Made by a program: the position numbers and the translations under genes. Shown piece by piece: positions 6,224 to 24,228 of a stretch of DNA of 64,000 nucleotides; the stretch's first letter is position 1; the number at the start of each line of letters is the position of its first letter. A model generated the notes under the pieces. It did not search any database and had not been told where the DNA came from. It saw only the letters and a program-made list of their open reading frames with translations. Origin of the DNA: Candidatus Parcubacteria bacterium (GTDB lineage Bacteria > Patescibacteriota > Minisyncoccia > Phycocordibacterales > CAIJYI01); assembly GCA_026395595.1 (NCBI GenBank), contig JAPLYL010000003.1:76136-140135 (forward strand), read 5' to 3'.

Positions 6224-6499
6224 TTGTGGTATTGTTGGGTTATGAAAGGGAAAAGGAACATAAATGCTGAATTTAACGAGACTTTTACGACTATTTCTGT
6301 CTTCATGGAGTACTACAACAAGAACATCCCCGTAAGTTATCCCCATGCGACCAGAGGGTCCTTAGAAGCGTTCCGGAAGGCGTATCCGGGTCTTTTTGCT
6401 GATGGAAAAAAGTGGTCTATAGACAAACATCGCAAACGCCTCATGGACTGGCTCCCGTCCTACGACTTTAGCAAGGAAGTACCCTCAGAAGTTGAATAA
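6224..6499 (+). CDS. Small hypothetical protein. An alternative start is the internal Met of MEYYNKN... at about 6305.
   Basis: The ORF is followed directly by a strong intrinsic terminator. No homology was recognised. Confidence 0.3.
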   Translation: MWYCWVMKGKRNINAEFNETFTTISVFMEYYNKNIPVSYPHATRGSLEAFRKAYPGLFADGKKWSIDKHRKRLMDWLPSYDFSKEVPSEVE

Positions 6500-6503
6500 A
6501 ACC

Positions 6504-6531
6504 AAAAAATGCCCCAATCGGGGCATTTTTC
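6504..6531. terminator. Intrinsic terminator.
   Basis: The sequence aaaaaatgccccaatcggggcatttttc forms a GC hairpin followed by a T-run. Confidence 0.7.
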
Positions 6532-6538
6532 ATATTGC

Positions 6539-6591
6539 AAGGTCTTCCCTTAAGGAGGAGTGAAGTGACGGGGAAAGGGGAGACCTTGGGG
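6539..6591. repeat. Conserved hairpin element, copy 1 of 2 (the other is at 43180-43241). It has an 11-bp stem, aaggtcttccc pairing with ggggagacctt, and the loop contains a perfect SD sequence taaggagga.
   Basis: The 50-nt core is near-identical to the 43180 copy. The stem was checked base by base. It sits between convergent genes, so no downstream CDS could use the SD. Confidence 0.5.
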
Positions 6592-6610
6592 CTATTTCAC
6601 TCTGTTCCTT

Positions 6611-8062
6611 CTAAAACTTACTCCAGAGCATCTGGTTGGTAATCTCATGGTGATAGATTACCTCGCTTTTTTTAATGATGGCTCCGAGACCTTTCGGACT
6701 TCGGTCTGCCGTTTCTTGTTTGTAAGAAACAAACTTTTCGTGAGGTCTTTCTCCCAGCGTTTTTTTGAGGAATTCGCTTCCTTTGAAGAGCTTGATGGCA
6801 TCATTGATATTTCCGGGCAAGTAGCGGAGGCGGTCGCGTTTACTTTCATCTTTCAAAAGAGGTTCTCCTTCCATCGCCGTTTTGAGAATGGCATAGACGG
6901 CGATGTACGGGTTGGCGTCAGGAGCAACAGAGCGGATTTCAATGCGGGCGGATTTTTCATTTCCCGCCGGAATGCGTATCATGGAACTGCGGTCAATGGA
7001 AGAAACTTTGATTTGGTTCGGGGCTTCAAAGTGAGGGTCCAGTCGGCGATACGCATTGACGCTCGCATTCAAAAGAAGAGAAAGTTCCGGAGCATGATTG
7101 AGAAGTCGTGAAATGGAATCCCATGCAAGAGGAGATAACCCATCGTCTCCGTCTTTTCTGTAAAAGACATTCTTTCCTCCCTTCATAAAAGAGAGGTTGA
7201 TGTGCATTCCCGATCCGTTTATATTCGCCACCGGTTTCGGAAGAAAGGTCGCGGTCATTCCTTGGTTCGTCGCAATCTGCCGGCAAACCAATTTGTAAAG
7301 CTGAATTCTGTCGCATGCTTTAACGGCATCGGCGTAAGAGAAGGCAAGTTCAAACTGAGATGGCGCGACTTCGGGGTGATCTTTTTCGTTTTTGAATCCC
7401 ATCGCTCTTTGTGCTTCCGCGGCGGCATCAATAAAAATTTTCAAACGGTCTAGCGGGAGGGAGTGAAAATATCCGCCGGTTGAGATAAGTTTGAAACCTT
7501 CTTCCTCTTGAAAATTCTGTTCCGCATTTACTCCGTCAACAAGAAAACCTTCCACTTCCGCTGCTATGTAGGCGGTAAGACCTTGTTTCTTTTTCAGTTC
7601 TTGACTGAAGGACATGAGTTGCCCTCTGAAGTCTGAATCGTAGGGGGTTTTATCGCGATTCAAAACATTGGCAAAAAAGATAACTTTTCCGGGCCCGAAA
7701 ACATCGGAAGGAAGCCAGAGAATACTTGACCAATCCACCTCCATGCGGAGGTCGGACTCTTTCTGTACGGAAAAACCGCGGATGGATGAACCGTCAAAGG
7801 TAAGGTTATCGGCAGAATCTAAAAAGTAGTGCTTGTCATAATCAAGCATGTGAAATCGTCCTTCAATATCGGAGAAACAAAGCGTAACCGCTTTTATGCG
7901 TTTTTCTTTGGCAAGATAGTCGCGATATTCTTTTTCAAGAATCGCAGAACTTTCCGTTCCGGCTCTTTCAGAAGCTTTGAGATTCATCTCTTCCAAGAGG
8001 TCGTAAGGGATTTCCAAGAAGTTTTTAAGCCCTACGGGGCTAGAAATAGGTTCTTTTGCCAT
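6611..8062 (-). CDS. glnA: Glutamine synthetase family protein.
   Basis: It is 483 aa and has the GS beta-grasp motif FDGSSIRGF, a catalytic-domain layout, and an NxxxE-rich C-terminal half typical of GS. Confidence 0.75.
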   Translation of the reverse strand: MAKEPISSPVGLKNFLEIPYDLLEEMNLKASERAGTESSAILEKEYRDYLAKEKRIKAVTLCFSDIEGRFHMLDYDKHYFLDSADNLTFDGSSIRGFSVQKESDLRMEVDWSSILWLPSDVFGPGKVIFFANVLNRDKTPYDSDFRGQLMSFSQELKKKQGLTAYIAAEVEGFLVDGVNAEQNFQEEEGFKLISTGGYFHSLPLDRLKIFIDAAAEAQRAMGFKNEKDHPEVAPSQFELAFSYADAVKACDRIQLYKLVCRQIATNQGMTATFLPKPVANINGSGMHINLSFMKGGKNVFYRKDGDDGLSPLAWDSISRLLNHAPELSLLLNASVNAYRRLDPHFEAPNQIKVSSIDRSSMIRIPAGNEKSARIEIRSVAPDANPYIAVYAILKTAMEGEPLLKDESKRDRLRYLPGNINDAIKLFKGSEFLKKTLGERPHEKFVSYKQETADRSPKGLGAIIKKSEVIYHHEITNQMLWSKF

Positions 8063-8145
8063 ATATTTATACTAAAATGTTAGTAATTTACTATAAATAT
8101 ACTCCAATTTATATAAAAAGTCAATAACTTTATCCACTTTTTGTC

Positions 8146-8170
8146 GCCGGTACGAGGTTGTACCTCGTAC
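8146..8170. promoter_or_regulatory. Perfect 11-bp inverted repeat with a 3-nt spacer (cggtacgaggt tgt acctcgtaccg) in the divergent glnA / zinc-ribbon promoter region. It is a candidate operator.
   Basis: The palindrome was verified by reverse complement. It contains a GTA-N8-TAC arrangement. It lies about 80 nt upstream of glnA, next to a TTGACT-N18-TATATT promoter on the minus strand. Confidence 0.4.
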
Positions 8171-8270
8171 CGAAATGTTTGTATAACGAAATAATCTCTG
8201 TTTTTTATCTAAACTTTGTCATACACCTCCCCTTGGAAATTTCCCAAAAATCTGTTATTCTAATGACATT

Positions 8271-8516
8271 ATGGAGAACAAGAACCGTAAAAATTGCGAA
8301 AGCTGTCTTTTCCCCCTTTCCAAAGATCCCGGAGTAAGCGGGTCGGAAAAATACTGCAGTTATTGTTTCAAAGATGGAAAACTCGTTTACGAAGGCTCTG
8401 ACCTGAAAGAGTTTCAGAATCGTTCGTATCAAGAAATGATCAAGAAAGGAATGAATAAGTATCAGGCAAAATTTTTCACATGGATGATGCACTTTGCTCC
8501 CCGTTGGAAAAAGTAG
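8271..8516 (+). CDS. Small zinc-ribbon protein with two CxxC pairs (CESC...CSYC).
   Basis: It is 81 aa. The two cysteine pairs are spaced like a zinc-ribbon domain. Confidence 0.55.
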   Translation: MENKNRKNCESCLFPLSKDPGVSGSEKYCSYCFKDGKLVYEGSDLKEFQNRSYQEMIKKGMNKYQAKFFTWMMHFAPRWKK

Positions 8517-8561
8517 ACAATTCATTAAGAAAAAGTTAGATTTAAATCGGTTAAATCACAT

Positions 8562-8635
8562 TGCGGGATCATCTAATGGTAGGATGCGACTCTCTGAAAG
8601 TCGTCATCTTGGTTCGAATCCAAGTCCCGCAGCCA
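8562..8635 (+). tRNA. tRNA-Gln with anticodon CUG.
   Basis: The fold was built by hand. The acceptor TGCGGGA pairs with TCCCGCA. The D-arm is ATCT/GGAT with loop AATGGTA. The anticodon stem is CGACT/AGTCG with loop CTCTGAA. The T-arm is CTTGG-TTCGAAT-CCAAG. Discriminator G and CCA are encoded. Confidence 0.85.
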
Positions 8636-8659
8636 ACACGTGCTAGCACGAGAGGAGTT

Positions 8660-9616
8660 ATGAATAAAAATAAAAACAGACATGTTGCCATTAAATTTCT
8701 TGAAACGGCAAGAAAAGCAACTTTTGAAGATTGCACCATAAATGGGGGCATTGATTTAGCAGGTTCTGGACATAAGTTTATTCATACCTCAATAAATGTC
8801 TTTAAACAAGAACACCCTTTTTGGTTTTGGTTTGCTTCTGCTGGAACTCTTATAGGTCTCCTTACTTCACTCATGTTCTTAGCACAATTTTTTGGATATC
8901 TTCCTCTTTCCCTGAAAGATAATATCGTGGCTCTTTCAGGGCCGGGAGCTGAAAAGCAACAAGGAATGGCACTGGTCGCTTCTCCTCTCCAATTAAAATC
9001 TGGTTACATATCGGAAAAAACAAATAAATACGATATAAGTATTAAAGTTCCTATTTTTAACAATTCAAAAATAGACGATATTGTCCGCTCAGCTATTGAT
9101 GAAAAAATTGAAAAAATAAAATATAATCACTCCCTTGATAAAGATGAGTATATACAAAAATTAACCCTATACGGTGATTATGAAACTCCTTATGTTTCGG
9201 ATAGTATAATTAGCATAAAGTTTAATTTAGGTCAAAGTTATATATTTTCGGATGGCGGGTCTTCAATGGGTAATCTTAATTTGGCGTATGGGATAAACAT
9301 TGATACAAAGAATAACAAAGTTATCACCTTGTCTGATGAATTAAAATCTTTCGGTATAAATATTCGCCAGTTATCTGAAAGAATTAAAGAAAAACTATTT
9401 GAAAAGTATAAAATACGTGATTTACACTCAGACACAGGTTTAGATCCTTTTGGTTCAAATTATTCTGAATTCGTAATCTCAGACGAAAGAGTAACTTTTC
9501 TCTTTCAGGGGTTTCAAATAGATTCTTTAGGAAAATGTATGCCAGAAATTTCATTTACGACAGATGGTGGATTTTTAGACATTACTGATGCTACAAATTG
9601 GTGTTCGGGCAATTAA
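8660..9616 (+). CDS. Hypothetical membrane-anchored protein. Its start was re-assigned to the ATG after an AGAGGAG Shine-Dalgarno sequence, because the track ORF from 8561 overlaps the tRNA.
   Basis: There is an RBS agaggag followed by ATG. One TM helix is present (FWFWFASAGTLIGLLTSLMFLAQFF). No homology was recognised. Confidence 0.5.
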   Translation: MNKNKNRHVAIKFLETARKATFEDCTINGGIDLAGSGHKFIHTSINVFKQEHPFWFWFASAGTLIGLLTSLMFLAQFFGYLPLSLKDNIVALSGPGAEKQQGMALVASPLQLKSGYISEKTNKYDISIKVPIFNNSKIDDIVRSAIDEKIEKIKYNHSLDKDEYIQKLTLYGDYETPYVSDSIISIKFNLGQSYIFSDGGSSMGNLNLAYGINIDTKNNKVITLSDELKSFGINIRQLSERIKEKLFEKYKIRDLHSDTGLDPFGSNYSEFVISDERVTFLFQGFQIDSLGKCMPEISFTTDGGFLDITDATNWCSGN

Positions 9617-9693
9617 AAAGAGGGTAACCACACAATCTCTCCTGAACTATATCGTATTTCCACCAAATATCACTAATCAATTTCTGTAGATTT

Positions 9694-10737
9694 ATGAGAG
9701 TATATTTAGATACCCGTGGCAGATTCACAATTGGCATTCCGGACCATTGGATTTGTCGAGAAGAAGATACCGCTAATGGAAATCCCGTTACGTTTGATTT
9801 AGGCGATAAATCAGATGATTATTTTCAGATAAGTTGTTTTTCCACGAACCAAGGTATCGTCTCAAAAGTAGGGCATCATTATGTGGAGAATAAGTATTCG
9901 GATTCCCCAATAGTTTTTTTGAGACGAGTCATTCATATAGCAGATATGGTAACGACGGTCTTTGAGGCAAAGGTGGAGGGTCATTTTATATTAGTCACTC
10001 ATATCACATCAAAAAAGCAGATCCATTCTAAAACCACTAAAAAACACCTCCATCAAATTGAGCGGACACTGGAAAAGCTTCGTGTCGTTAATCCGTCAAG
10101 TTGGGCGTACGTTTCGACACACGCAAAATATAATAGATTCATGGTTTCTTTACTTGCGGCTATCGATTTGACAAACAAGGCACAGGAAAACGGATCATCA
10201 ATCGAATTGGTTATTCTTTATGCAAATCAGATTGATGCACACCTTCGTTTGGCACTGATACTACAAGAGCAGTTACAAAATTCTACGGATAATATTGACG
10301 CCACCCTCATTTTTCAAGGAAAGACGGATAAGCCGATATTTGAAAAAGAAATATATGAACGCGCTTTAAATCAAGGGGTGATTGAAAAATCTTTATACGA
10401 AAGGCTAAAAAATTTGTATGAATTGAGAAACGGAGTAGTGCATAGGTACATTATCTCAGACCTGAAAACAAACGACATTGTAAAACTTGTTGTCGATTAT
10501 ATGGATATTCATGAAATACTTGGAAAAAAGCTTTCAGCGCTTGAACAAGAACAATTTGAGAAAAATATTGGTATTTATGGTGGCGGAAATAATCCTACAA
10601 ATCCAATTGAAATTACTCAGATGAGGGGGCTGTTGACAGAATTGAAAGAAAAGCACAATAATGCACAAATTATAAAAGAAATGACAATTAAGGTAGAGGC
10701 GAATAATTCGCGGTCTAGTAAACCTAATGAGAAATAA
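9694..10737 (+). CDS. Hypothetical protein whose C-terminal region has an Rx4H motif (ELRNGVVHRY) consistent with a HEPN-type fold.
   Basis: It is a 347-aa intact ORF. The RNxxxH motif sits in a helical context. The HEPN assignment is inference from motif only. Confidence 0.5.
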   Translation: MRVYLDTRGRFTIGIPDHWICREEDTANGNPVTFDLGDKSDDYFQISCFSTNQGIVSKVGHHYVENKYSDSPIVFLRRVIHIADMVTTVFEAKVEGHFILVTHITSKKQIHSKTTKKHLHQIERTLEKLRVVNPSSWAYVSTHAKYNRFMVSLLAAIDLTNKAQENGSSIELVILYANQIDAHLRLALILQEQLQNSTDNIDATLIFQGKTDKPIFEKEIYERALNQGVIEKSLYERLKNLYELRNGVVHRYIISDLKTNDIVKLVVDYMDIHEILGKKLSALEQEQFEKNIGIYGGGNNPTNPIEITQMRGLLTELKEKHNNAQIIKEMTIKVEANNSRSSKPNEK

Positions 10738-10760
10738 AGCGTGTCATATTTGTCGCTTTT

Positions 10761-11567
10761 ATGAATCCACAAAATAAATCGTTAAAAGAAGAATTTCTAA
10801 AGCTTAAAAATGAAGTTGAGCCTTATATTCAGAATGGTCGAGTAAAAGACAAGAGCCATTTACAAAGCTACTTATACTTTGCTTACTACCCACTATTTAG
10901 TTTCGTAGAGTCAATATTAATTCTTTGTGAGAGTGGAAAATTCCGTAGTGCCGAATCACTCTTACGGTCGCTTATCGAGCTGCATATAAACGTCATTTAC
11001 TACCAAGTAGCTGACTCTGATCGCAGGCTTGCTATTTCCGTGAAAAAAGATCTTGAGGAGAAAATAACCGGGATTAGAGGAATTAGAGAGCTAATACGAA
11101 AATATCCTAATCTGAAATCCGACAACCCTAAAGACTTATTCAGTAATGAATGGCTAAAGGAAGCTGAAGACTGGGCAGAAGAACGACGACAAGCTATTTT
11201 GCGGGGAAATCACCTAATCAAGGCCGATAATGATTTGAGTTTAAAGGATAAGGCAATTAAGTGTGACCAGGCGAAAATGAAAGATATTGAAGCTGGGCAC
11301 TTTGAGCGAATGTATCATATGATTTACCGTCAGCTCTCACCATCGACGCACTTAAACATTGGTGGCATACAAGGTTTTGTTGATCAGAAAGAAGGGGGTA
11401 ATTATTTATTTAGTGATGGAGGTCAAAAAGATTACTACTTAATGCAAGAAGCTATTGCAATTTGTGTGGCCTTAACCAAGGATCTTTATGAAAATGGAGT
11501 GATTGTTGCAAAACTTCCAGATACTATTGGTCGCCTTGAAAAACTTCTAACTCGGAATTTGAGATAG
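10761..11567 (+). CDS. Hypothetical protein of 268 aa.
   Basis: It is an intact ORF 23 nt downstream of the previous gene and probably co-transcribed. It has an Rx6H-like segment (RQLSPSTH). No family was recognised. Confidence 0.5.
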   Translation: MNPQNKSLKEEFLKLKNEVEPYIQNGRVKDKSHLQSYLYFAYYPLFSFVESILILCESGKFRSAESLLRSLIELHINVIYYQVADSDRRLAISVKKDLEEKITGIRGIRELIRKYPNLKSDNPKDLFSNEWLKEAEDWAEERRQAILRGNHLIKADNDLSLKDKAIKCDQAKMKDIEAGHFERMYHMIYRQLSPSTHLNIGGIQGFVDQKEGGNYLFSDGGQKDYYLMQEAIAICVALTKDLYENGVIVAKLPDTIGRLEKLLTRNLR

Positions 11568-11649
11568 TCACGATTCTTTTTAATATCTCTTAATTTTCGG
11601 AATCGGGATTAGTCCCTAATCTTTGTGAAAGTATTGGTTAATTTCAACT

Positions 11650-12252
11650 ATGAACAAAAAACAAACAACAATCCTCGAAACTTTTAAAACAAACGTAGAT
11701 ATTGATACACTTCGTTGTGATGCTGATAAAATTGTCATTTCGCATGATACTTCTTATTTTATTTCATATCCGGAATTTATTAAATATTTCAGCGACATAA
11801 AACAGATTTCAAAACACAATGTTATTATCGGTATAAATTTTACCTACGGTTGGATGCCGACGATTTTCAATTTTCGGTCGAAAGATTTTGATAATGTGGT
11901 ATTAATTCTGAATAATGCTAAGAAGGGTATAGTTCCGCAAGTCCACGAGTTAGAGACGTTAAAAAAATGTTTTAATAATTCTCTTGTTGGGACATCAAAA
12001 CTTTTACATTTTATAAATCCCGAAATATTTGCAATCTGGGACAGCCGAGTGTATCGGTATTTAACAAATCATAGAGCTTATAATTATCACCTTAATAATT
12101 ATGAATCATATTTAGCTTATTTAGAATTTTGTAAATATATAACAAATCAGCCCGGTTTCGATTATATTCATAATTCTATCATTAAAAAAATGGGGAATGA
12201 AATAACAAAATATCGAACCGCAGAACTCGTTATGTTTTTATCTGTACAATAA
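11650..12252 (+). CDS. Hypothetical protein of 200 aa.
   Basis: It is an intact ORF with an AT-rich codon usage like the neighbouring island genes. Confidence 0.45.
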   Translation: MNKKQTTILETFKTNVDIDTLRCDADKIVISHDTSYFISYPEFIKYFSDIKQISKHNVIIGINFTYGWMPTIFNFRSKDFDNVVLILNNAKKGIVPQVHELETLKKCFNNSLVGTSKLLHFINPEIFAIWDSRVYRYLTNHRAYNYHLNNYESYLAYLEFCKYITNQPGFDYIHNSIIKKMGNEITKYRTAELVMFLSVQ

Positions 12253-12264
12253 GTATTTAAAAAT

Positions 12265-12447
12265 ATGAAAACACCTGAAACTTGTTTGTCCTGTAACAAA
12301 CTTTATTTAAAAAACCAGAATGATGTAGGAAAATTATGTTCAGAATGTGTATTGGATGAATCAATGCATGAATACCTGCAAGCATTGAGAAAGATTGAGC
12401 GCCGTTTGACTTTTGTTGAATGGTTGTTTGTTTTAGCAAAAGGTTAA
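12265..12447 (+). CDS. Small zinc-ribbon protein (CLSC...CSEC).
   Basis: It is 60 aa with two CxxC pairs. It starts 12 nt after the previous gene. Confidence 0.4.
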   Translation: MKTPETCLSCNKLYLKNQNDVGKLCSECVLDESMHEYLQALRKIERRLTFVEWLFVLAKG

Positions 12448-12504
12448 TTTTATGTGAAAAATTCGGGGCACGATTCTTTTTAAAACTTATGATATAATCA
12501 ATAA

Positions 12505-13257
12505 ATGGAAAAAATAAAAAAGCGACTTCCCGGACAATCTCTCGATGAAAAACTTCAAGATTTTGTTGATGAAAAACTTATTTTTTATCTTTTTTATATC
12601 ACTGTAATTGTGATTGTTATTATTGGAGAATGGGTCCGTTTCTTTTGGAAATTTGAACCGCACCCGGTGGTAATTTCGATTGTTGGTTTAATTGTAGTAA
12701 TTTATCTTGTAAACCAAATTTTTAATAATCTAAAGGATGTCAAAAAGTTAAAAAAGGGGAGAGACGGAGAAAGAGAAGTCGGTCAGTATCTTGAGGAAAT
12801 GCGGTCGACGGGTGCACTCATTTTTCACGATATCCTTGGGCCGAATTTCAATATAGATCATGTCATTGTGTCACCGCATGGAATTTTTACTGTAGAGACG
12901 AAAACCTGGAGTAAGCGAGCCAAAAATGAGTCAATAAAGTTTGATGGAAAACATTTAATCGTAAATGGATATTCTCCAGACAGAGATCCTCTTGCTCAAT
13001 CGCTCGCTCAATCTCAATGGTTGAAAAATCTCTTGAAAGAAAGTACTGGAAAAGAATTTATTGTGAACCCTGTAATCGTTTTCAATGGGTGGTTTGTAGA
13101 GTCAGAAACAACTCGTCAGGTTAAAGAATATGGAGTCTTAGTTTTAAATCCAAAAGCCTTGCCGTCATTTGTGAATAATAATTTTACTAACATGAGTAAT
13201 GAAGATTTGCATTTAATCGCCTATCATCTCGCTCGCCATATACAATCACCAATTTAA
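12505..13257 (+). CDS. NERD (nuclease-related domain) protein with an N-terminal double TM anchor.
   Basis: The NERD signature is GRDGEREVGQYL ... FHDI ... IDHVIVSPHGIFTVETKTW. Two N-terminal hydrophobic helices are present. Confidence 0.65.
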   Translation: MEKIKKRLPGQSLDEKLQDFVDEKLIFYLFYITVIVIVIIGEWVRFFWKFEPHPVVISIVGLIVVIYLVNQIFNNLKDVKKLKKGRDGEREVGQYLEEMRSTGALIFHDILGPNFNIDHVIVSPHGIFTVETKTWSKRAKNESIKFDGKHLIVNGYSPDRDPLAQSLAQSQWLKNLLKESTGKEFIVNPVIVFNGWFVESETTRQVKEYGVLVLNPKALPSFVNNNFTNMSNEDLHLIAYHLARHIQSPI

Positions 13258-13342
13258 CGGATTCATGAATTAAAGCTGCCCCCATTCCTTGCTAGCACGA
13301 GAACAATTTTAGAATAATATTTCTCGGTAGTATTTTAAATAT

Positions 13343-13993
13343 ATGAAATTATCTCTTCAAAAAACATTATTTTCTATTGCCTCAGAGATGCAGGTAAAAG
13401 GCGACCCTTCGCATGATTTTTCTCATGTTGAGAGAGTTTTACACTTGGCAGTAGATATTGCAAAAACAGTGAATGCTGATTTAGATATTGTTATTCCAGC
13501 CGCTTTATTTCACGATATTATTGTGTATAAAAAAGACAGCAAGGAAAGTAAAAATGAAGCGAACGAAAGTGCTGATGTTGCAGAAAAAGTACTACGAAGT
13601 ATGTCGGAATATCCAAACAAAAAGGTAGAGTCAGTAAAGACCTGTATAACTCAATGTTCCTTTTCAAAAGGCATCACGCCAACCCTCTTGGAAGCAAAGG
13701 TACTTCAAGATGCCGACCGATTGGAAGCGACAGGTGCTATTTCTATCATGCGAACATTTGCCTCTTGTGGTCAGATGGGGAGACCTTTTTACTCAAAAGA
13801 TGACCCGTTGTGCAAAAAAGAAGCGATACCTTTTCGTTCCGGTATTGATTTGTTCTATAACAGACTTCTTATCGTTGAGAGTATGATGCATACGAAATAT
13901 ACCAAAAAAATAGCAAGACAAAGAACAAAATTTCTTAAACAATTTCTTGCTCAGTTTGAAAAGGAATTGAAGGAATCGGGAATCATTGAATAA
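13343..13993 (+). CDS. HD-domain phosphohydrolase.
   Basis: The H...HD...D metal-binding pattern is present (FSHVERV, LFHDI, QDADRLEATG). Confidence 0.65.
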   Translation: MKLSLQKTLFSIASEMQVKGDPSHDFSHVERVLHLAVDIAKTVNADLDIVIPAALFHDIIVYKKDSKESKNEANESADVAEKVLRSMSEYPNKKVESVKTCITQCSFSKGITPTLLEAKVLQDADRLEATGAISIMRTFASCGQMGRPFYSKDDPLCKKEAIPFRSGIDLFYNRLLIVESMMHTKYTKKIARQRTKFLKQFLAQFEKELKESGIIE

Positions 13994-14015
13994 TATTATT
14001 CTAAACAAAAATAGC

Positions 14016-14120
14016 CGCCCGAGAGCCGTCGATGTGATATTCTTAAATTAAGTAAATCCGCCTTGCAGGGCTTGGTTTCGCACGGTTCCAGTCCGGGGAC
14101 GACAGCCAAATCGTGCTATG
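14016..14120. repeat. Island repeat family C, copy 1. It starts 23 nt after the HD gene stop.
   Basis: Conserved blocks are shared with copies at 16062-16165, 16950-16975 (partial) and 18272-18397. They are CGAGAGCCGTCG, GGCTTGGTTTCGCA, a T-arm-like GGTTCCAGTCC, and CGACAGC. Confidence 0.6.
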
Positions 14121-14189
14121 TTATTTCGCTCGAGATGCATCGATAAATAGAAAATAACATCAAAATGTCGTAGGTGATAAAATTCATAA

Positions 14190-16052
14190 ATGGGAAACGA
14201 ATCAAGCAAAACCTCTATTGAAGATTTGTTCGTCTCTCCAAAAGACGCGTCTTTTTATAACTATGTGCTGGTCTTGGTTCGACCCAAGGGTGTATCCCGA
14301 TTTGCCGACCCACTTTGGGTGGCATATAGCCAATTTCTCAGATCAGAAAAGTTCAAGCTTACGGAGGATTTACTGATTGAAACGCTTTCTCTCGTTTTTA
14401 ACCTTAGTGAACACAAAGCAAATAGGGAGTATCACCCATTTCCTTTTGGTAAGTCGCTTAGTGAAGGCAAGAGAGTCACTGTTGCCCTCCTCAAAAAGAA
14501 TGGGCAAGAGACGCTCGCGCAGGTAATTGAGGAGAACTTCCCTGAAGAAGCTACCTACGGACTAGAAGCATCAGCACCACTTTCAGACTTCCTGCAAGAG
14601 CTTACGAATCGTTATTTTCAGGCACGACTGGATTTCAATAAGACACCTGGAAGGCTTCTATATAAAATGCCTCATTTTGAGGTTTTCGAGGTGTTGAAGG
14701 ATGACACTTACGGTTTGTACGGATTCAATATGTACTTCTCTAACGGTTCACATGCTAACTACGAACGTACAGGAGAACGCACAACGGGAATCAATGTCCT
14801 TACTGACTATCCAATAAACTACAATGTCGGTCTAATAGATGACCTAAAACGAGAATGGAAAGTAGGAACCCAACGTGCCTATGAGGTAGGAATATCAGGA
14901 AGATACAACGATTGGGGAGAGTGGATGCCGCTTGTATATCCAGGCGACAACCACCAGATGTTTCTAACTGAAAGTGAACGAATAGCTGGAGACGATCATC
15001 AGGTTGCGGGAATACTCTTCTATATCATGTGTACTGGTCACCGAATCATAGAATTCGCTGTCAAAACCCCCATTGAACTTCCAAACAAGTATTTCTCGCT
15101 TGGAAGCAGAATGCACATGTATAAATGCGAACCACTCGACCAGACCAGCCATAGTGCGAGGGACTTTCATATTTATGACGGCCACTACGAACTTGATGAC
15201 TTAGACCCTAAGACCATAAGAAACGCAATTGCTTCAATCAATGTTGGCTTAAATCGAATGGCCTTTTCCTACGACTCTAGTGTTGATTGGTGCATCAAGT
15301 ATTCAATCTATAAAGAAGGAGGTCATTCAAAACCAACTCCCACCAATGAACAATTGGATGTGCTTAATTCGATGTTAGTAGACTTTCCAGACACAGAGGA
15401 TGCCATTGTATTGGATATCTGTATTGACTGGTTTCACCGTGGAGAACTTGCCCGACGTAAGAATGTATTTCTTGCTTTCCTGTCCTATTACATCGCATTA
15501 GAGAGTGTCGCAACAGCTATTGCTGATGGCGATGCTGACTTAGGTTTGGGATACGTCAAGGAAACAAAGGCCGAACGCAAAACCCGAGTTGTTTCTGAGA
15601 TACAGAAACTCCATGACGAACTCTATAATTCAGACCCACAGAAGTTTATTGAACGAGCCTATTTTGAACAGGTTGTCGGCTTAAAGGCCAAGACTCGAAA
15701 GGTCATGGAGTTGGTATTTGGTACTGACCATGCGTATGTAAAAACTTTATTTGAAAAAGTAGACGGCAAGGAATCTATATATGACTTACGAGGAGAACTT
15801 GCTCATGGGGGCATCACATTACTAGACTCTAGTCATCAAAAGAGGATTCGGGAACGACTTCCTGAACTCGCGGAGATAGTGAGGGAGTTTGTTAGGAAAA
15901 TAATTGTGAAGCCTGGTCAGGAACTTCCGCGATGGACAGGTGGAAGCACGTTCTCTGTGTTTCCAAGCGATCCAAGAGACATGATGATTTCCTCGGATAT
16001 GAGAATGTATGAAAGGCTCGACTGGAAAATTAAGCCAGAATGGTTCGATTAA
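14190..16052 (+). CDS. Hypothetical protein of 620 aa from a higher-GC (about 45%) foreign block. The N-terminus is MGNESSK.
   Basis: It is a long intact ORF whose composition differs from the flanking AT-rich genes. No family was recognised. Confidence 0.6.
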   Translation: MGNESSKTSIEDLFVSPKDASFYNYVLVLVRPKGVSRFADPLWVAYSQFLRSEKFKLTEDLLIETLSLVFNLSEHKANREYHPFPFGKSLSEGKRVTVALLKKNGQETLAQVIEENFPEEATYGLEASAPLSDFLQELTNRYFQARLDFNKTPGRLLYKMPHFEVFEVLKDDTYGLYGFNMYFSNGSHANYERTGERTTGINVLTDYPINYNVGLIDDLKREWKVGTQRAYEVGISGRYNDWGEWMPLVYPGDNHQMFLTESERIAGDDHQVAGILFYIMCTGHRIIEFAVKTPIELPNKYFSLGSRMHMYKCEPLDQTSHSARDFHIYDGHYELDDLDPKTIRNAIASINVGLNRMAFSYDSSVDWCIKYSIYKEGGHSKPTPTNEQLDVLNSMLVDFPDTEDAIVLDICIDWFHRGELARRKNVFLAFLSYYIALESVATAIADGDADLGLGYVKETKAERKTRVVSEIQKLHDELYNSDPQKFIERAYFEQVVGLKAKTRKVMELVFGTDHAYVKTLFEKVDGKESIYDLRGELAHGGITLLDSSHQKRIRERLPELAEIVREFVRKIIVKPGQELPRWTGGSTFSVFPSDPRDMMISSDMRMYERLDWKIKPEWFD

Positions 16053-16061
16053 TTCCTGGGT

Positions 16062-16165
16062 GCTCGAGACTCGTCGTTTTTGATTCTAGAAACTTACCAA
16101 ACTGACTAACCCAGGCTTGGTTCTATCCGGTTCTAACTCGAGACGGACAGCCGGTTTGAGCTAGC
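16062..16165. repeat. Island repeat family C, copy 2 (divergent). It starts 10 nt after the stop of the 620-aa gene.
   Basis: It shares ctcgagactcgtcg, aggcttggtt, ggttc and gacagcc with copies 1 and 3. Confidence 0.5.
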
Positions 16166-16208
16166 TCGAGTCGTTTCTCTTACGCCTGTTCTGCAATATA
16201 ATAAATAG

Positions 16209-16944
16209 ATGGAAAACTATTCCGAATTTTCAGACTCCCGTTTGGTAGGGATTTATGACACATTAAACCCCTTTTCTGCGGATACTAAATTTTATATAGA
16301 ACTTGCAACCAGCCTCAATAATTGTTGATATCGGTTGTGGTACCGGATTGCTTGCCTCTGAATTAGCCAAACGGGGTCACAAAGTAATTGGCGTCGAACC
16401 TGAAAAGACAATGCTTGAAGTTGCACGCAATCGACCTAATGGTGAACTTGTTCATTGGATTGAAGGCGATGCAACAAAAGTTGGGCAAACAAACGCCGAC
16501 CTTGCGATTATGACCGGTCATGTGGCTCAAGTATTTCTTGATGATAAAAAATGGAGAGAAACATTAAAGGCTATATACAAATCATTACGTGCATGTGGTA
16601 CTATTGCTTTTGAAAGTCGCAACCCGGTTGTTAAACCATGGGCTTCGTGGGTACCTGAAACATCTCGTCGAGAAAAGGTTGACCCAGTGTTTGGTAAGGT
16701 TGTTGTTTGGAGTCAGTTGCGAGAACTCAAAGATAATCGAGCACGATATGAAATGCATTACCATTTTGAAAAAACAGGAGAAGACCTTGTGTCAGTAAAT
16801 GAGATTATATTCCGTTCACAAAATGAGATAACCAAATCATTAATCGATGTAGGTTTTTCAGTACAAAGTATTTATGGCAGTTGGGACAGGGGTCTCGTCA
16901 ATGAAAAAAGTTCTGAATTGATTTTTGTTGCAGTACGGAACTAA
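16209..16944 (+). pseudogene. Class I SAM-dependent methyltransferase broken by a frameshift around 16300-16325.
   Basis: Frame 0 (16209-16328) encodes MENYSEFSDSRLVGIYDTLNPFSADTKFYIELA, a typical MTase N-terminus. Frame +1 from 16303 continues with motif I VDIGCGTG and the rest of the fold. The codons were checked by hand. Confidence 0.55.
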
Positions 16945-17298
16945 TTATTAGCGCCCGAGACGAGGGAATAGTGTCAGACCCATTTGTTTTATAAAAAATA
17001 TGGTCTAATTAAAGAAATTCTAGACATTCACTCTATTCACAAACCCCACTTATCAAAACTAAAAAATACGCTCATGAACCTCCGGAACTTTTTTATTGGG
17101 AGAGCCATCGGTTTTTTGGTTGTTCTCGTTATCGCCCTTTTTTGGTTTCTGTTGTTTAAGTAGGAAAGCGGAAATTCGGAAATTCAGGCTGTCACGATTT
17201 CTTCACAAAACTCTAGTCGGGCATTAAAAAATCAAAATGGCCCGCGATTTTTTGTGTGGTATTATGTCTGCATAAACGCGTAAAATTAAGACGAAACG

Positions 17299-18249
17299 GT
17301 GAAGATATCCAACATGGTACGACGCGCAATCGTTTATTATTTGAATAAATTTTTTATATCTATGGACAAGGTACTTATTCGGATCCACGAAAATATGGAG
17401 TCGGTAAAAAGAATGTCTCAAGATGAAAATCCAATGGAATTCTGGTCGGCTCGCGATTTGATGCCGCTATTGGGTTATTCCACTTGGCGTCAGTTTTCTG
17501 AGTCCATTGAACGGGCAAAAAACGCATGTAAAACAAGTGATCAGGTTGTTGATAGCCACTTTTTGCCGGCGCCGGCAAAAAGTCATGGAGGTCGTCCACA
17601 AGAAGATTATTATCTCACTCGCTATGCCTGTTATCTTATTGCTCAAAACGGCGACCCGCGTAAACCAGAGATTGCACTCGCTCAAACATATTTTGCAACA
17701 CAGACGAGAAAACAAGAACTTTTAGAAAAAAGAGAATACGAAGATAAACGTTTGGAATCGCGCGCAAAACTCAAAGATACGGAAAAGAAAATTGAGGGGA
17801 CGGTCTATCAGAGGGGTATCCGACTTCCTGTTGAGTTTGCAACTTTTAAAAATAAACACATTGAAGCACTCTATGGCGAAATCACCGCCGGCGAATTGAA
17901 ACGAATCCGAAAAATTCCGGGAGGTCAGTCGCTTGCCGATTTTGACAGTAATGTGGAGTTGAAGGCAAAAGATTTTGCACTCGCTATGACCGACCACAAC
18001 ATAAAAGAGAAAAATATTTTCGGAAAAGAAGCGATGAATGCCGAGGTTGTTAAAAACAGCAAAGAAACCCGACAAGCATTGCTTAATCGCGGAATCAAGC
18101 CTGAACTAATAAAACCGGAAGAAGATTTGAAAGTCATAGCAATAAGACGAAAAAAAGAGGAGAACCAAATAAAACCTCAAGCAAAACCAAAACTCATTGA
18201 GGGGAAGAAGAAAAATAGTAATGGGGACAGCCACCACCATTCTTTTTAA
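17299..18249 (+). CDS. dinD: DNA-damage-inducible protein D (DinD family). The real start may be the Met at 17362 or 17395.
   Basis: MEFWSARDLMPLLGY ... IERAKNACKTSDQVVDSHF matches E. coli DinD (EFWSARDLAPLLEY ... IEKAKTACENSGQ ... DHF). An extended -10 element tgGTATTAT lies at about 17252. Confidence 0.6.
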   Translation: MKISNMVRRAIVYYLNKFFISMDKVLIRIHENMESVKRMSQDENPMEFWSARDLMPLLGYSTWRQFSESIERAKNACKTSDQVVDSHFLPAPAKSHGGRPQEDYYLTRYACYLIAQNGDPRKPEIALAQTYFATQTRKQELLEKREYEDKRLESRAKLKDTEKKIEGTVYQRGIRLPVEFATFKNKHIEALYGEITAGELKRIRKIPGGQSLADFDSNVELKAKDFALAMTDHNIKEKNIFGKEAMNAEVVKNSKETRQALLNRGIKPELIKPEEDLKVIAIRRKKEENQIKPQAKPKLIEGKKKNSNGDSHHHSF

Positions 18250-18271
18250 AAACCGCACATTAATTTTACCT

Positions 18272-18397
18272 CGCCCAAGAGCCGTCGTTGTGGTAATCTG
18301 ATATTAAGCCCTTCGGCTCGTTTTGCTCGCTCAGGATAAACAAATCCGCCTTGCAAGGCTTGGTTTCGCATGGTTCTGGTCCGAGGGCGACAGCGAG
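18272..18397. repeat. Island repeat family C, copy 3. It starts 23 nt after the dinD stop and has a 33-nt insertion relative to copy 1.
   Basis: It is near-identical to copy 1 outside the insertion. Confidence 0.6.
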
Positions 18398-18429
18398 CTT
18401 GAGATAAGTTCGGAGTCCGAGAAGCATTA

Positions 18430-18992
18430 AATCAACCACCCCGCCCCGAAGGGGACGGGGTATGAACAGAACATGGGTGTCAATTCCACAGCGTGGGCTG
18501 CGTGGTAATTCCCATCGTCTTTCCTTGGTTCTCGACATACTGCTTTACGGTATTCCAATTCCCCCGTTCGCTTACAGTGGCAAGGTAATATCCATCGCTC
18601 CAAAATTCACCTCCCCAAAGTTTTTTCCGCAATTCAGGAAATCGCTTGAACAATTCCCGAGCAGTTATACTCTTAAACATTCCTACGATTTGTGAACCCT
18701 TATATTTTGGATGAAAAGAACAGAGTATATGAATATGATTACCATCGGTGCCTACTTTCTCAAACTCAATTTCGTACCTCTCTTCTATTTCCTTAGCGAT
18801 TTCCAGAATTGCTCCTTTTATTTCCTCACTAAGTAATGACTTCCGATACTTTACCGGAAAGACGATATGGTAGTGCGTATCATATACGCAGTGATTGCTT
18901 CGAGTGACACCCATGTTGCTATTATATCAGAAAACCGAGGGTTTTCAGACTTTCCTACACGGTTCCCGCCCCAAGGGGCGGGGTAAGGGCTT
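18430..18992 (-). mobile_element. IS200/IS605-family insertion sequence with minimal tnpA only. It has subterminal hairpins at both ends.
   Basis: tnpA has the HuH motif YDTHYHIVF and a YYLATV catalytic tyrosine region. The hairpins ccccgcccc-gaa-ggggacgggg (18438-18461) and cccgcccc-aa-ggggcggg (18965-18982) flank the gene. Confidence 0.75.
18480..18914 (-). CDS. tnpA: IS200/IS605 family transposase TnpA (Y1 HuH).
   Basis: The 144-aa protein MGVTRSNHCVYDTHYHIVFPVKYRKSLL... is a textbook IS200 TnpA. Confidence 0.85.
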   Translation of the reverse strand: MGVTRSNHCVYDTHYHIVFPVKYRKSLLSEEIKGAILEIAKEIEERYEIEFEKVGTDGNHIHILCSFHPKYKGSQIVGMFKSITARELFKRFPELRKKLWGGEFWSDGYYLATVSERGNWNTVKQYVENQGKTMGITTQPTLWN

Positions 18993-19021: not shown

Positions 19022-19558
19022 ATGGATGAACAATGGTACACAATAACTGGAGGAATCGATGTCAATACGGCGCATAACTTAATTACATATATCAATGGAC
19101 AGATTTATAGTTCCAATATTAAAAAATTAAAAATAATTATTTCATCAACTGGAGGAGATGTAGATTCGGCCATCCGAATTTACTCGTATCTAAAGGCATT
19201 ATCTATCGACATTGAAACAATCGCTTTTAGTCAAATTGATTCGGCCGCAAATATTATTTATGCAGCTGGCAGTAAACGTATCGCCATAAAGGGTTGCCGA
19301 TTTTTCCTACACGAAGGAACCTTTACCACAGGTACTCAGACAACGACTCTTCACAATCACGAAGAGGTACTTACTATCTTTAAAGAGTTACTAAAGAAAC
19401 ATACAAGTATTCTCTCAAAAGAAACTGGGAAAAAAGAAAAGGAGATCACCAAACTCTTAACAGAAAGTACAATTCTGACGGCAGAAAAAGCGAAGGAATT
19501 GGGATTAGTCCACGAGATTATGGAAAAGCTTCCACTTACAAAACAAACCCTAAGTTAG
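19022..19558 (+). CDS. ClpP-like (S14 / Clp-fold) serine peptidase homolog.
   Basis: STGGDVDSAIRIYSYLKA ... IAFSQIDSAANIIYAAGSKRIAIKGCRFFLHEG aligns with ClpP INSPGGSVTAGLAIYDTM ... GQAASMGAFLLTAGAKGKR ... MIHQP. A Ser and a His are retained. Confidence 0.5.
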   Translation: MDEQWYTITGGIDVNTAHNLITYINGQIYSSNIKKLKIIISSTGGDVDSAIRIYSYLKALSIDIETIAFSQIDSAANIIYAAGSKRIAIKGCRFFLHEGTFTTGTQTTTLHNHEEVLTIFKELLKKHTSILSKETGKKEKEITKLLTESTILTAEKAKELGLVHEIMEKLPLTKQTLS

Positions 19559-20254: not shown

Positions 20255-20415
20255 ACAATTGAATAAGTAAGTAGCCTAAACCGATAGTCGTATCGGCATG
20301 GTGAAAAAAAGTCCCGCAAAGACATAAAAAACCCATCATGTGGGGTGTCTTTGCGGGCCATATCGGGAAACCGGTATGAGGGGCTTCGGTCTCTACTCAC
20401 GTGGTGGGCTTTTTG
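20255..20415 (+). ncRNA. Candidate structured small RNA or cis-regulatory leader of about 160 nt. It has a pseudoknot, GAAA and UUCG tetraloop hairpins, and a terminator-like 3' end.
   Basis: Hairpin ccgatagtcgtatcgg is present. A 12-bp helix pairs gtcccgcaaagaca with tgtctttgcggg. A pseudoknot pairs cccaucaugug (inside that loop) with cacguggugggc, including G-U pairs. The GNRA hairpin cgg-gaaa-ccg and the UUCG hairpin gaggggc-uucg-gucuc are present. The RNA ends in a U-run. The G/C-rich reading frame 20340-20461 is not protein-like. Confidence 0.45.
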
Positions 20416-22740: not shown

Positions 22741-24228
22741 TTATCTTTGTATTTTTTTATGCATCTCTCTTGAAAGAGAGATGTTCTCTTCCGTGATGGT
22801 TTTGGAAAGTCCGATATACTTTGCTTTTTTGAGAACAGGAGCTTCAAAGATTTCTGCGCTCGTTGCCGATATCGGTCCATCTACCGTCTGAAGCAAGGGC
22901 GCTTTGAATACGCGAGCGCGAAAAGCATTAAGCAATCCGCCCACTGATGTCAGGTTTGGCATATTAAACTCAACCGCTTCTCCCGTATTGAGCGATTCAC
23001 CGACAAACTCCAGTTGCGGAGCTTGAAAATCTTTGGCGGTTTTTGCTTCCACAAAACCGTTTACCGATACGAGATTATCATACAAGAAAACAGAAGAAGA
23101 ATCCGTCATGTTTCCCGCCCACTCAGTTATTCCATGTTTTATTTCCGGACGAAGATTTGTGAGATTTGTTGCCACTGACGGAATTTTTGAAATGAATTCG
23201 GTCTCTTCTCCTGTTGTTTCTTTTGTCATTTCAATTTTTCCGGATAAGACCAGCGCGTCTTTTTTAGGATCATATTCACTAAAAGGAATTTCTCCCCGTT
23301 CCGTACAAAGATGGTTCGGCGCGACAATGATGTCTTCCGACGCTTCACGATATACCGATGTTATTTTTCTTTTCTTTCCGTCGTCATCGGTCGTTTCCTC
23401 CATTTTTTTCAGTACCTCTATAAATTCGCCGAAGAACGGATCGGAAGGAAGAAGTTTCGCTTCATAGACCTTTTTGATTTGAGTGAGCGATCTTTTTATT
23501 CTATTGTACTCAAAAGTGATGACAGGCTTATCTCCTTCTTTCTCTTTGAACGAAAAAGTATCGATGTCTCCCGCTTTCATTCTATATATATAGGAGCTTG
23601 CGCTGGTTGGAGCGCCGATACAGTGATGCATCTCTTTTCCCTCTTGTTCCAAATGAGGCTGGTTGAGAAGGCGCGCTAAATAATATCTTCCCGAATTCGT
23701 TTCAAATTCAATGAGGTAAGGGTTATAAGATTCTTTGTCGTTAAGATTGATCCGTTTTTTTATTTCTTCGCGCGTCTGTTTGATTGTTTTTGTTTTATAA
23801 TTTTCCACCAGATTTTTGAGTGGTCCTTTAAGAAAGTTCGGTGTTTCAAAGATTGCTTGACGGAGCATAGCGATATCTATTTCATTATTCTCTTGAAAGT
23901 ATTGTAAAAGTTTGAGGCGGAGCACGGCAGATTTTGCCGGTGAAAGATCAAGAGAAAGAGAACAGAGGGCGTCGTCTGCCTTTTGTCGTATTTCTTGACG
24001 GTTTTTCTCCGGGATTTTTTTGATTGCTTCATTTGCTTCTCCCTCAATTTTTTGAAGGAATTCCTGCTCATACTTTTGTTCAGAGGACTCCTTGGTTTCG
24101 TGTTCAAGTTTTGTTTCCATGTTTGTTTTCTTGTTTATATCTCCGATTATATCCCATAAAACGCAACAGCAAAAGTAATTTTTGAGTTTCTTGCTTTGTT
24201 CTGATATACTCAAAACATATGGATACAA
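22741..24228 (-). CDS. Hypothetical protein of 495 aa with C-terminal BspA-like leucine-rich repeats (F.AP.L..V.G units).
   Basis: Repeated segments of about 22 aa recur: FQAPQLEFVGESL, FNMPNLTSVGGLL, FKAPLLQTVDGPI and FEAPVLKKAKYIGL. Confidence 0.5.
   Translation of the reverse strand: MYPYVLSISEQSKKLKNYFCCCVLWDIIGDINKKTNMETKLEHETKESSEQKYEQEFLQKIEGEANEAIKKIPEKNRQEIRQKADDALCSLSLDLSPAKSAVLRLKLLQYFQENNEIDIAMLRQAIFETPNFLKGPLKNLVENYKTKTIKQTREEIKKRINLNDKESYNPYLIEFETNSGRYYLARLLNQPHLEQEGKEMHHCIGAPTSASSYIYRMKAGDIDTFSFKEKEGDKPVITFEYNRIKRSLTQIKKVYEAKLLPSDPFFGEFIEVLKKMEETTDDDGKKRKITSVYREASEDIIVAPNHLCTERGEIPFSEYDPKKDALVLSGKIEMTKETTGEETEFISKIPSVATNLTNLRPEIKHGITEWAGNMTDSSSVFLYDNLVSVNGFVEAKTAKDFQAPQLEFVGESLNTGEAVEFNMPNLTSVGGLLNAFRARVFKAPLLQTVDGPISATSAEIFEAPVLKKAKYIGLSKTITEENISLSREMHKKIQR

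Follow-up and report, generated by a model that had tools for sequence, protein, structure and literature searches.

The stretch considered here, 64 kb of contig JAPLYL010000003.1 from a Candidatus Parcubacteria bacterium (the window, by which this whole stretch is always meant; mean GC content 41.5%), harbours an array of gene modules bounded by copies of a conserved repeat, hereafter the unit. Upstream of the array lie glnA, an open reading frame (ORF) for a Zn-ribbon protein and the gene for tRNA-Gln(CTG). The array comprises a low-GC, tRNA-proximal block of six to seven genes, the last of which encodes an HD-domain protein, followed by a 620-aa gene, a frameshifted S-adenosylmethionine (SAM)-dependent methyltransferase gene and a Bro-N gene, and an insertion sequence (IS) of the IS200 type has inserted beside the last recognisable remnant of an attachment (att) site (Table 1). 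Modules 2 to 4 and the HD gene are single-gene and co-oriented. The calls for the HD, 620-aa, methyltransferase, Bro-N (then named ‘DinD’) and IS200 genes, made in a preliminary description of the locus, hold, with Pfam matches for all but the 620-aa protein, and so does the frameshift, by frame analysis: the methyltransferase frame opened by the ATG at 16209 ends near 16326, and the body of the protein is read from 16303 in the +1 frame.

The repeat unit and its tRNA-Gln anchor

Three full copies of the unit stand in the window, far above chance (nhmmer E = 8.6e-28 for 14016-14107, 2.9e-19 for 16061-16152 and 6.7e-24 for 18272-18395). The window copies were among the sequences from which the nhmmer model was built, yet five independent metagenome loci score equally well. 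Trimmed against these five loci, the unit runs CGCCCGAGAGCCGTCG...GGCTTGGTTTCGCACGGTTCNAGNCCGAGGGCGACAGCC, and its length is exactly 92 nt in seven (two in the window, five in the metagenome loci) of the eight copies first extracted. A repeat search and a four-way alignment present copies 1 and 3 as a pair of about 85% identity broken by an insert, and copy 2 as a diverged relative, 55% identical to copy 1 and 57% to copy 3. The block CGAGAGCCGTCG recurs in copies 1, 2 and 3 with zero, one and two mismatches, respectively, and GGCTTGGTTTCGCA is exact in copies 1 and 3. The distance from stop codon to unit is 22 nt for the HD gene, 8 nt for the 620-aa gene and 22 nt for Bro-N, and a possible 5′ fragment of the unit, GCGCCCGAGACGAGGG, begins about 6 nt past the methyltransferase stop. 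A conserved repeat after consecutive, unrelated genes, with a divergent second copy, had been proposed in the preliminary description and is borne out. Its equation of copy 3 with copy 1 plus 33 nt is right about the presence of an insert, but the insert measures 32 nt and the copies are 85% identical, and the fragment that it placed near 16950 is present in the sequence but too short to be significant alone. The other intergenic regions of the window, including the one after the ClpP-like gene, contain nothing significantly unit-like, nor do those of the tRNA-proximal block; the window copies are confined to one co-oriented array behind tRNA-Gln and are not dispersed over the 64 kb.

The unit is organized around a GCCCGAGAG box, direct copies of which occupy its positions 2-10 and 76-84. 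A third copy lies 8 nt past the unit, within GCTAGCCCGAGAG, and elements encoding a large serine recombinase (LSR) have a fourth, about 30 nt beyond the third. In copy 2, every box has the sequence CTCGAGA, which is also that of the box ahead of the 620-aa gene (14128-14142), a sharing which implies that this module carries its own att variant at both ends. The 32-nt insert of copy 3, CCCTTCGGCTCGTTTTGCTCGCTCAGGATAAA (18309-18340), has a relative, CCCTTCGGCGCGGCTCAGGGTAAAC, on the related contig L093 (4873-5174), where it resembles the window insert and occupies the same relative position in a unit of a different family; another relative, CCCTTCGACTCGCTCACCGCTCGCTCAGGGCAGG, is found on contig L001 (at about 85-118), directly after the unit. 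It may represent an optional module, or else a very small mobile insertion.

The approximately 20 nt found after each unit are also found after the real tRNA-Gln(CTG) gene at 8562-8635. Therefore, the array, or island, begins at 8562 and not at 13993; the extent of 13993-18430 given in the preliminary description missed the true start, 5.4 kb upstream. The window sequence at 8633-8654, CCAACACGTGCTAGCACGAGAG, matches the flanks after two units of another array, L005a and L005c (20 of 22 positions for the L005a flank). When the 3′ end of tRNA-Gln with its flank is aligned, from CAGCC, with the 3′ end of the unit and its flank, 37 of 49 positions agree, divided into 17 of 27 in the tRNA-like T-arm and acceptor part and 20 of 22 in the flank. 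Because of this agreement, the ‘T-arm-like’ block at the 3′ end of the 92-nt unit is a degenerate copy of the T-arm, acceptor and encoded CCA of tRNA-Gln; the preliminary description had seen the block but missed its derivation from tRNA-Gln. In the window, the module-bounding repeats are degenerate versions of the tRNA 3′ end with its flank; in relatives, the repeats are near-exact.

Composition singles out the tRNA-proximal part of the array. The middle genes, previously described as GC-rich and foreign, are close to the window mean (43.2% for the 620-aa gene, 42.4% for the span 14190-16944), and it is the block at 8660-13993 that deviates, with 34.5%. This block, which by its position would be the latest insertion, has many domains of the conflict type (DUF5677, NERD, HD and a weak HepT-like hit). 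A homolog of the 620-aa gene (89% identical in aa and 82% in nt) is found in a Minisyncoccia metagenome-assembled genome, in an unrelated neighbourhood with no unit or tRNA-Gln, and the nucleotide similarity is limited to window positions 14156-16052, that is, to the module interior between the second box and unit copy 2. This unrelated context indicates that cargo therefore also moves by other routes.

Table 1. Features of the tRNA-Gln array in the window
Feature	Position	Strand	Basis and remarks
tRNA-Gln(CTG)	8562-8635	+	ARAGORN; Rfam tRNA 56.6 bits; CCA encoded at 8633-8635; array anchor, attB-like left half
att flank CCAACACGT + GCTAGCACGAGAG (spacer + box2)	8633-8654	+	same sequence after units in other arrays
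tRNA-proximal low-GC block	8655-14015	+	34.5% GC; Pfam, GC and box search; 6-7 genes
Block gene	8660-9616	+	
Block gene	9694-10737	+	weak HepT-like hit
Block gene, DUF5677	10761-11567	+	
Block gene	11650-12252	+	
Block gene, NERD	12505-13257	+	Pfam
Possible box2 remnant GCTAGCACGAGAA	13291-13303	+	box search
Block gene, HD	13343-13993	+	Pfam
Unit copy 1	14016-14107	+	92 nt; nhmmer and alignments; distal att scar of the HD-containing module
Spacer AAATCGTGCTA + box2 variant GCTCGAGATGCATCG (14128-14142)	14108-14142	+	CTCGAG type common to unit 2 (box1, box3, box2)
620-aa gene, module 2 cargo	14190-16052	+	no Pfam family
Unit copy 2	16061-16152	+	92 nt, divergent; every box CTCGAGA; nhmmer and alignment
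Flank GGTTTGA + GCTAGCTCGAGTCG (spacer + box2)	16153-16173	+	box search/alignment
Frameshifted SAM-dependent methyltransferase, module 3 cargo	16209-16944	+	Pfam Methyltransf_25 1.3e-15
Possible unit 5′ fragment GCGCCCGAGACGAGGG	16950-16968	+	visible in the sequence; not significant alone
Bro-N (‘DinD-like’) gene, module 4 cargo	17299-18249	+	Pfam Bro-N 7.5e-11
Unit copy 3	18272-18395	+	124 nt = 92 nt + 32-nt insert at 18309-18340; nhmmer
Diverged flank AGCTTGA...GAGTCCGAGAAGC	18396-18436	+	spacer variant also at the L093 tRNA flank
IS200 element	18437-18986	-	TnpA 18480-18914(-), Pfam Y1_Tnp 1.5e-37; GC-rich terminal hairpins

The locus in related contigs and a candidate recombinase

The five metagenome loci with units, found by a pattern scan of metagenome contigs, all come from sample Ga0172379. 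According to a profile search of these Paceibacterota contigs, L004 bears three units, spaced 569 and 717 nt apart, and the contig comprising L005 and L002 bears five. The L004 array begins right after tRNA-Gln(TTG), and the 12 nt after this tRNA (AAATCGTGCTAG) equal the 12 nt after each unit; the array of L002 and L005 likewise starts directly at tRNA-Gln(CTG), and there, as in the window, the tRNA and the units share their flank. Opposite-strand genes are present inside both arrays (1961-2353 in L004; Fic in L002). Synteny between the L002 contig and the window covers glnA, the Zn-ribbon ORF and tRNA-Gln, with 73-80% nucleotide identity, and the units of the two are about 89% identical, but the cargo of L002 is wholly different, including GrpB, Fic, a 2′-5′ RNA ligase, a methyltransferase and a 1326-aa protein. 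Contig L093 displays a second, related unit family, the one with the insert described above, and a third flank type.

The end of synteny coincides with the end of the tRNA. Contig L088 (GlnA 96% identical) shares 90.3% nucleotide identity with the window over 6272-8633, and homology stops exactly at the tRNA 3′ end (8633); the L088 sequence past the tRNA has no match anywhere in the window. Contigs L006 and L007 (GlnA 80-81%) keep tRNA-Gln and diverge at the same base, after ...CCCGCAGC. A polymorphism of a single module distinguishes L089, L091 and L090, which encode identical GlnA: L089 and L091 have a 1.4-kb module containing only Fic, and L090 lacks it. On both sides of the module stands a direct repeat of 37 nt, GTCCCGCAGCAGTCATATACTAAGTCAGGTGACCGAG, made of the last 9 nt of the tRNA and 28 further nt, which reads as the clean attL/attR signature of a recombinase-less module. 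The Fic polymorphism is an argument for the precise gain or loss of at least some modules that lack a recombinase. The same module (93-95% identical in aa) is found in three arrays with three att types, including those of L002 and L093/L095, and in the L002 contig it retains the 37-nt repeat on its far side. The locus is highly variable among relatives, both in cargo and in the presence or absence of the Fic module, in line with the mobility that the preliminary description had supposed. Contig L104 has a 2.6-kb module without LSR between the tRNA and a short att, followed by restriction-modification (RM) genes and an LSR. This short att joins box1, a 22-nt match to the tRNA 3′ end with one mismatch, and the flank; it equals the 92-nt unit minus its middle of about 50 nt, which ties the architecture of the unit to a true partial tRNA repeat.

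Other searches returned no further units. An exact-pattern scan of GTDB representative genomes and the GlnA-anchored loci of 80 GTDB genomes were free of them, the sole match in pattern scans of viral contigs (L087) being a chance match in a high-GC contig, and look-ups of the HD and 620-aa proteins for strain variants returned only the same strain.

The candidate enzyme is an LSR encoded at the same tRNA-Gln locus in nine related loci. Type A, a 427-aa protein with Resolvase, Recombinase and Zn_ribbon_recom domains, is encoded 1-3.5 kb from tRNA-Gln in L007, L088, L089 and L098, and is truncated in L090. The type A proteins are 97-99.5% identical mutually, although GlnA of the genomes concerned is only 80-96% identical to that of the window. 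Type B (437-442 aa, 66% identical to type A) is located behind tRNA-Gln in L096/L101 and L104/L105. LSR type tracks flank type: type A is always associated with a flank in which CAGC is directly followed by AGTCATATACTAAGTCAGGTGACCGAG, and type B with one in which CAGC is directly followed by CAA(AT/CA)CGTGCTAGC(C/A)CGAG, the flank seen in the window and after the units.

The type B element is prophage-like. From the tRNA outwards, it consists of the flank, an archaeo-eukaryotic primase (AEP)-helicase, PIF1, the LSR on the opposite strand, a ParB-methylase, a terminase (L103/L104), an S24 repressor and then defence cargo (Ymh, CBASS, GmrSD or RM). Contig L001 is 100% identical to L103 over 10 kb. 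From this identity, the 92-nt unit of L001 can be located some 12 kb from the LSR of a type B element, at its far end. The L103-type element has the layout of the L096 element, in which the near end adjoins tRNA-Gln. In L096, the region ahead of the type B LSR start (370-760, minus strand view) contains long GC-rich inverted repeats (CCCGCTAAAG...CTTTAGCGGG and GACTCC...GGAGTC), which may be a regulatory or structured part of the LSR element. A giant beta-helix/LCAT-like protein (1326-1640 aa) recurs in the tRNA-Gln islands (L005 3245-7225; L007 2164-7086), and in one ENA contig a similar 1418-aa protein adjoins an LSR.

In a search for the LSR family to which the L096 protein (737-2065) belongs, all 8000 scored candidates have E <= 1e-60, and among the matches listed 116 of 120 share 75-81% identity with the query; their sources include Parcubacteria, Yanofskybacteria, Nomurabacteria and WS5. 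Judged by these matches, the family is very abundant and conserved in the Candidate Phyla Radiation (CPR). In viral contigs, the LSR search gave one relative of 67% identity, without att-like sequence. The window itself encodes no LSR homolog and no recombinase except the IS200 TnpA, as Pfam and LSR-homolog searches indicate, and neither the window nor the related elements have a tyrosine recombinase among their annotated genes. The absence of a visible integrase noted in the preliminary description is confirmed for the window; a recombinase does stand at the same site in relatives, of the large serine type and not an integron integrase.

Several observations concern the surroundings of the array. 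A LOOT RNA (RF03000) is matched at full length at 20273-20394 (+), with 77.9 bits against a gathering threshold of 46.4, about 1.3 kb past IS200 and between ORFs of 157 and 138 aa. A 62-nt repeat of 82% identity occurs at 6539-6590, between a 91-aa ORF and the glnA 3′ end, and at 43180-43241, roughly 90 nt ahead of tRNA-Ser(GGA); L088 contains the matching stretch too. On the far side of the last att remnant, a short ClpP-family protein (19022-19558, +; 7.3e-24) and a PcfJ-like protein (22741-24228, -; 1.7e-08) are encoded, and the island may reach past IS200; no att-like sequence was found there. The same-strain Logan contig L086 (9853 bp) breaks at the tRNA-Gln flank and at IS200, which suggests that both sites are repeated in that genome or community.

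Proposed serial integration and the rival explanations

The window region from 8562 to about 18436 is probably a genomic island at the 3′ end of tRNA-Gln(CTG), arising from repeated site-specific integration, most likely by an LSR. The 92-nt unit would be an att arm brought in by the element, opening with a GCCCGAGAG box and closing in the degenerate tRNA-Gln end, and it would remain on the side of each inserted module that is distal to the tRNA. A 7-nt spacer and a second box, GCTAGCNCGAGAG, begin the following module, and the same sequence stands directly after the true tRNA. We infer that the exchange takes place within about 20 nt past the discriminator base, with tRNA or pseudo-tRNA to the left and module-specific sequence to the right of box2; an exchange at this position would therefore never disrupt the tRNA. 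Reuse of the tRNA-proximal site would push older modules outward, giving the presumed order of tRNA-Gln; the low-GC block with HD, and unit 1; the 620-aa gene and unit 2; the methyltransferase pseudogene and the unit fragment; Bro-N and unit 3; and the diverged flank with its interruption by IS200. The catalyst would most likely be an LSR (Resolvase, Recombinase and Zn-ribbon domains) of the family common in CPR, carried by the prophage-like element (terminase, S24 repressor, ParB-methylase, AEP primase-helicase) that uses the same att, and the recombinase-less modules of the window would be satellites mobilised in trans or the cargo ends of decayed elements. This reading keeps the core of the preliminary description, in which repeats bound horizontally acquired, functionally unrelated modules that arose by site-specific recombination.

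A number of points weigh against it. The activity of the window array is unproven because no LSR or other recombinase is encoded in the 64 kb, and the array may be a fossil. No presence/absence polymorphism of the window's own modules was seen in the one other same-strain contig compared, and L103 has an LSR but no tRNA-Gln within 10 kb. The association of LSR with att is drawn from co-location in about nine loci. The sites are also unusual. Classical LSR att sites (of the phiC31, Bxb1 or Ccr type) span about 40-50 bp, with inverted half-sites, a non-palindromic central dinucleotide and little identity between attP and attB, although Ccr-type sites share extended identity. In contrast, the repeats described here, 37 to about 110 nt long with three or four direct GCCCGAGAG boxes, resemble an arm-site architecture, with a 12-nt palindrome, CGTGCTAGCACG, in one flank variant. 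Neither the direct boxes nor the conserved middle of the unit, about 50 nt, is explained by the reading or usual for classical LSR sites.

The preliminary description had proposed site-specific cassette capture, either integron attC-like or by another recombination system. In an integron-like system, the 92-nt unit would be an attC analogue that folds as single-stranded DNA and is recombined with attI by a tyrosine integrase. Such a system would suit heterogeneous, mostly single-gene, co-oriented modules without internal recombinase, each ending in a conserved element of 92-124 nt located 8-22 nt past the stop codon, but it is now highly improbable. An attC is an imperfect inverted repeat (R''-L''/L'-R') that folds as a bulged hairpin, and the IntI gene stands beside attI at the head of the array. 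The motifs repeated in the unit are direct rather than inverted, neither strand folds better than dinucleotide shuffles as RNA or as single-stranded DNA (z -1.5 to +1.2), and RNAalifold on 13 units yields -6.65 kcal/mol with no compensatory pairs. The RYYYAAC/GTTRRRY cores (R''/R') are absent from the alignment, searches of the window and of about 20 related loci gave neither IntI nor another tyrosine recombinase, and some module genes lie on the opposite strand, as in L004 and L002. The attC-like character has consequently not survived, and the ordinary terminators that the preliminary description named as the alternative fail as well: a terminator scan found a single terminator-like site, in the flank after unit 2, and none inside the units.

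The tRNA-like features also raise the question of a functional RNA, a tRNA-like 3′ structure serving RNase P or RNase Z processing, mRNA stabilisation or termination. The T-loop-like GGTTCNAGNCC, the acceptor-like pair of 5′ GCCGTCG and 3′ CGACAGC, the encoded CCA, the strict 92-nt length and the optional 32-nt insert, whose relative position is shared by two diverged unit families, would all fit, and, by eye, GUCG/CGAC seems to change to GCG/CGC between families in the acceptor-like pairing. This explanation is nevertheless improbable. The units have no Rfam match even at E <= 10, including the tRNA model, no ARAGORN call and no T-tracts, and their fold energies are no better than those of shuffles. 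In a tRNA-like structure built by hand, 78.8% of cells are paired, compared with 77.8% after column shuffling, 82 of 500 shuffles being as high, and the covariation score is 0.164 against 0.148 when shuffled, 68 of 500 being as high, with limited power given 13 sequences, most of which are over 80% alike. The unit sits 5′ of, or opposite to, the neighbouring gene in L004 and L002, and a role as RNA would leave unexplained why the flank after the unit is the flank after the tRNA and why the array starts at tRNA-Gln.

Two further explanations dispense with a dedicated integrase. The units could be passive homology anchors, with modules swapped or deleted by RecA-type homologous recombination between copies of about 90% identity following DNA uptake. 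In agreement with this, the units (about 89-93%) are more conserved between genomes than the backbone (73% nt for glnA), the arrays are mosaics of att types and no recombinase is encoded in the window; how a tRNA-derived unit arose, the precise 37-nt Fic repeats, the exact break at the tRNA 3′ end and the recurrent LSR with matching att are left unexplained, which makes the proposal unlikely as a replacement for site-specific integration, on top of which homologous recombination may nonetheless act. Alternatively, the unit could be a selfish small repeat, similar to a miniature inverted-repeat transposable element (MITE) or a repetitive extragenic palindromic (REP) sequence, spread by the adjoining IS200-type Y1 transposase. 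REP sequences are mobilised by the IS200-like RAYT enzymes, and IS200 abuts copy 3, but the unit has no terminal inverted repeats or palindrome, it is restricted to a single co-oriented array, Pfam scans of part of the ORFs at other unit-bearing loci show no IS200 homolog and the IS200 hairpins are unrelated to the unit in sequence. This explanation is barely credible, and the IS200 element has no demonstrated link to the repeat.

Known parallels and implications

Serial site-specific integration at tRNA-Gln, giving an integron-like outcome via a different mechanism, is the best reading of the locus. The literature consulted contains no description of such arrays or of an association of LSR with tRNA-Gln in CPR, only the analogy of the tycheposons. 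In the islands of Prochlorococcus, these and other tRNA-targeting integrative elements accrete in tandem, separated only by a partial tRNA copy (bioRxiv 10.1101/2020.12.28.424599). Like the array described here, they involve integration at tRNA genes, partial-tRNA separators, newcomers that push older elements into the island, scattered degraded remnants and extra partial tRNAs, and a streamlined genome with few other mobile elements. They differ in using mostly tyrosine recombinases, with an integrase in each element, whereas here the candidate is an LSR and most modules are without recombinase. Their att is about 40 nt of true tRNA, whereas the scar here spans 92 nt, of which the tRNA-like part is degenerate and the other approximately 65 nt are not tRNA-derived.

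Composite islands of the staphylococcal cassette chromosome mec (SCCmec) are formed by Ccr LSRs at the rlmH 3′ end, where pseudo-SCC elements that lack a recombinase also stand in tandem. They have in common with the tRNA-Gln array an enzyme of the LSR family, insertion at the 3′ end of a single conserved gene that is not inactivated, direct repeats and tandem recombinase-less elements movable in trans. Here, however, the target is a tRNA, the modules are smaller (0.6-2.6 kb, often one gene) and the repeat is longer, with its GCCCGAGAG boxes, and kinship of the candidate LSR with Ccr is not established. In streptococci, accretion of integrative and conjugative elements (ICEs) and cis-mobilisable elements (CIMEs) brings together att-bounded elements moved by the integrase of a related element. 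Integrase-less DNA with attL/attR-type sites compatible with a full element at the same locus is the shared feature; the streptococcal systems depend on tyrosine integrases, typically involve one or two elements and do not form single-gene arrays of many modules. Chromosomal integron arrays resemble the locus in outcome, being ordered, mostly co-oriented sets of accessory genes that are unrelated to one another (toxin- or defence-like at this locus), with a conserved element of 90-130 nt after each gene and without an internal recombinase. They are unlike it in having IntI, an attI/Pc platform and a folded attC with R/L boxes, none of which occurs at the locus; the locus is anchored at a tRNA and includes some modules that are multi-gene or have opposite-strand genes.

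How accessory genes are gained and lost in CPR/Patescibacteria, with their tiny genomes and few recognised mobile elements, is poorly understood, and the locus represents a concrete, testable route, offering one conserved hotspot (tRNA-Gln beside glnA), a defined att architecture and a candidate enzyme. The cargo is mostly of the defence or toxin type (NERD, HD, HepT-like, Fic, Bro-N, DUF5677, CBASS, GmrSD, RM and Ymh), which makes the site look like the defence island of these organisms. An LSR specific for a tRNA end, with long defined sites and natural tandem reuse of the site, could interest genome engineers. Should mobilisation of the small modules in trans prove real, the integron would have a counterpart based on a serine recombinase. 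A broader proposal, possible but doubtful at present, is that the locus exemplifies an integron-like gene-capture platform of CPR, in which the tRNA-Gln 3′ end would be the acceptor, a CPR-wide LSR supplied by a temperate element would act in trans, the 92-nt arm (box1, core and pseudo-tRNA end) would be the analogue of attC and promoter-poor single-gene modules would be the cargo, allowing cells to shuffle defence and toxin genes. Such a platform may serve Paceibacterota, and perhaps CPR more widely.

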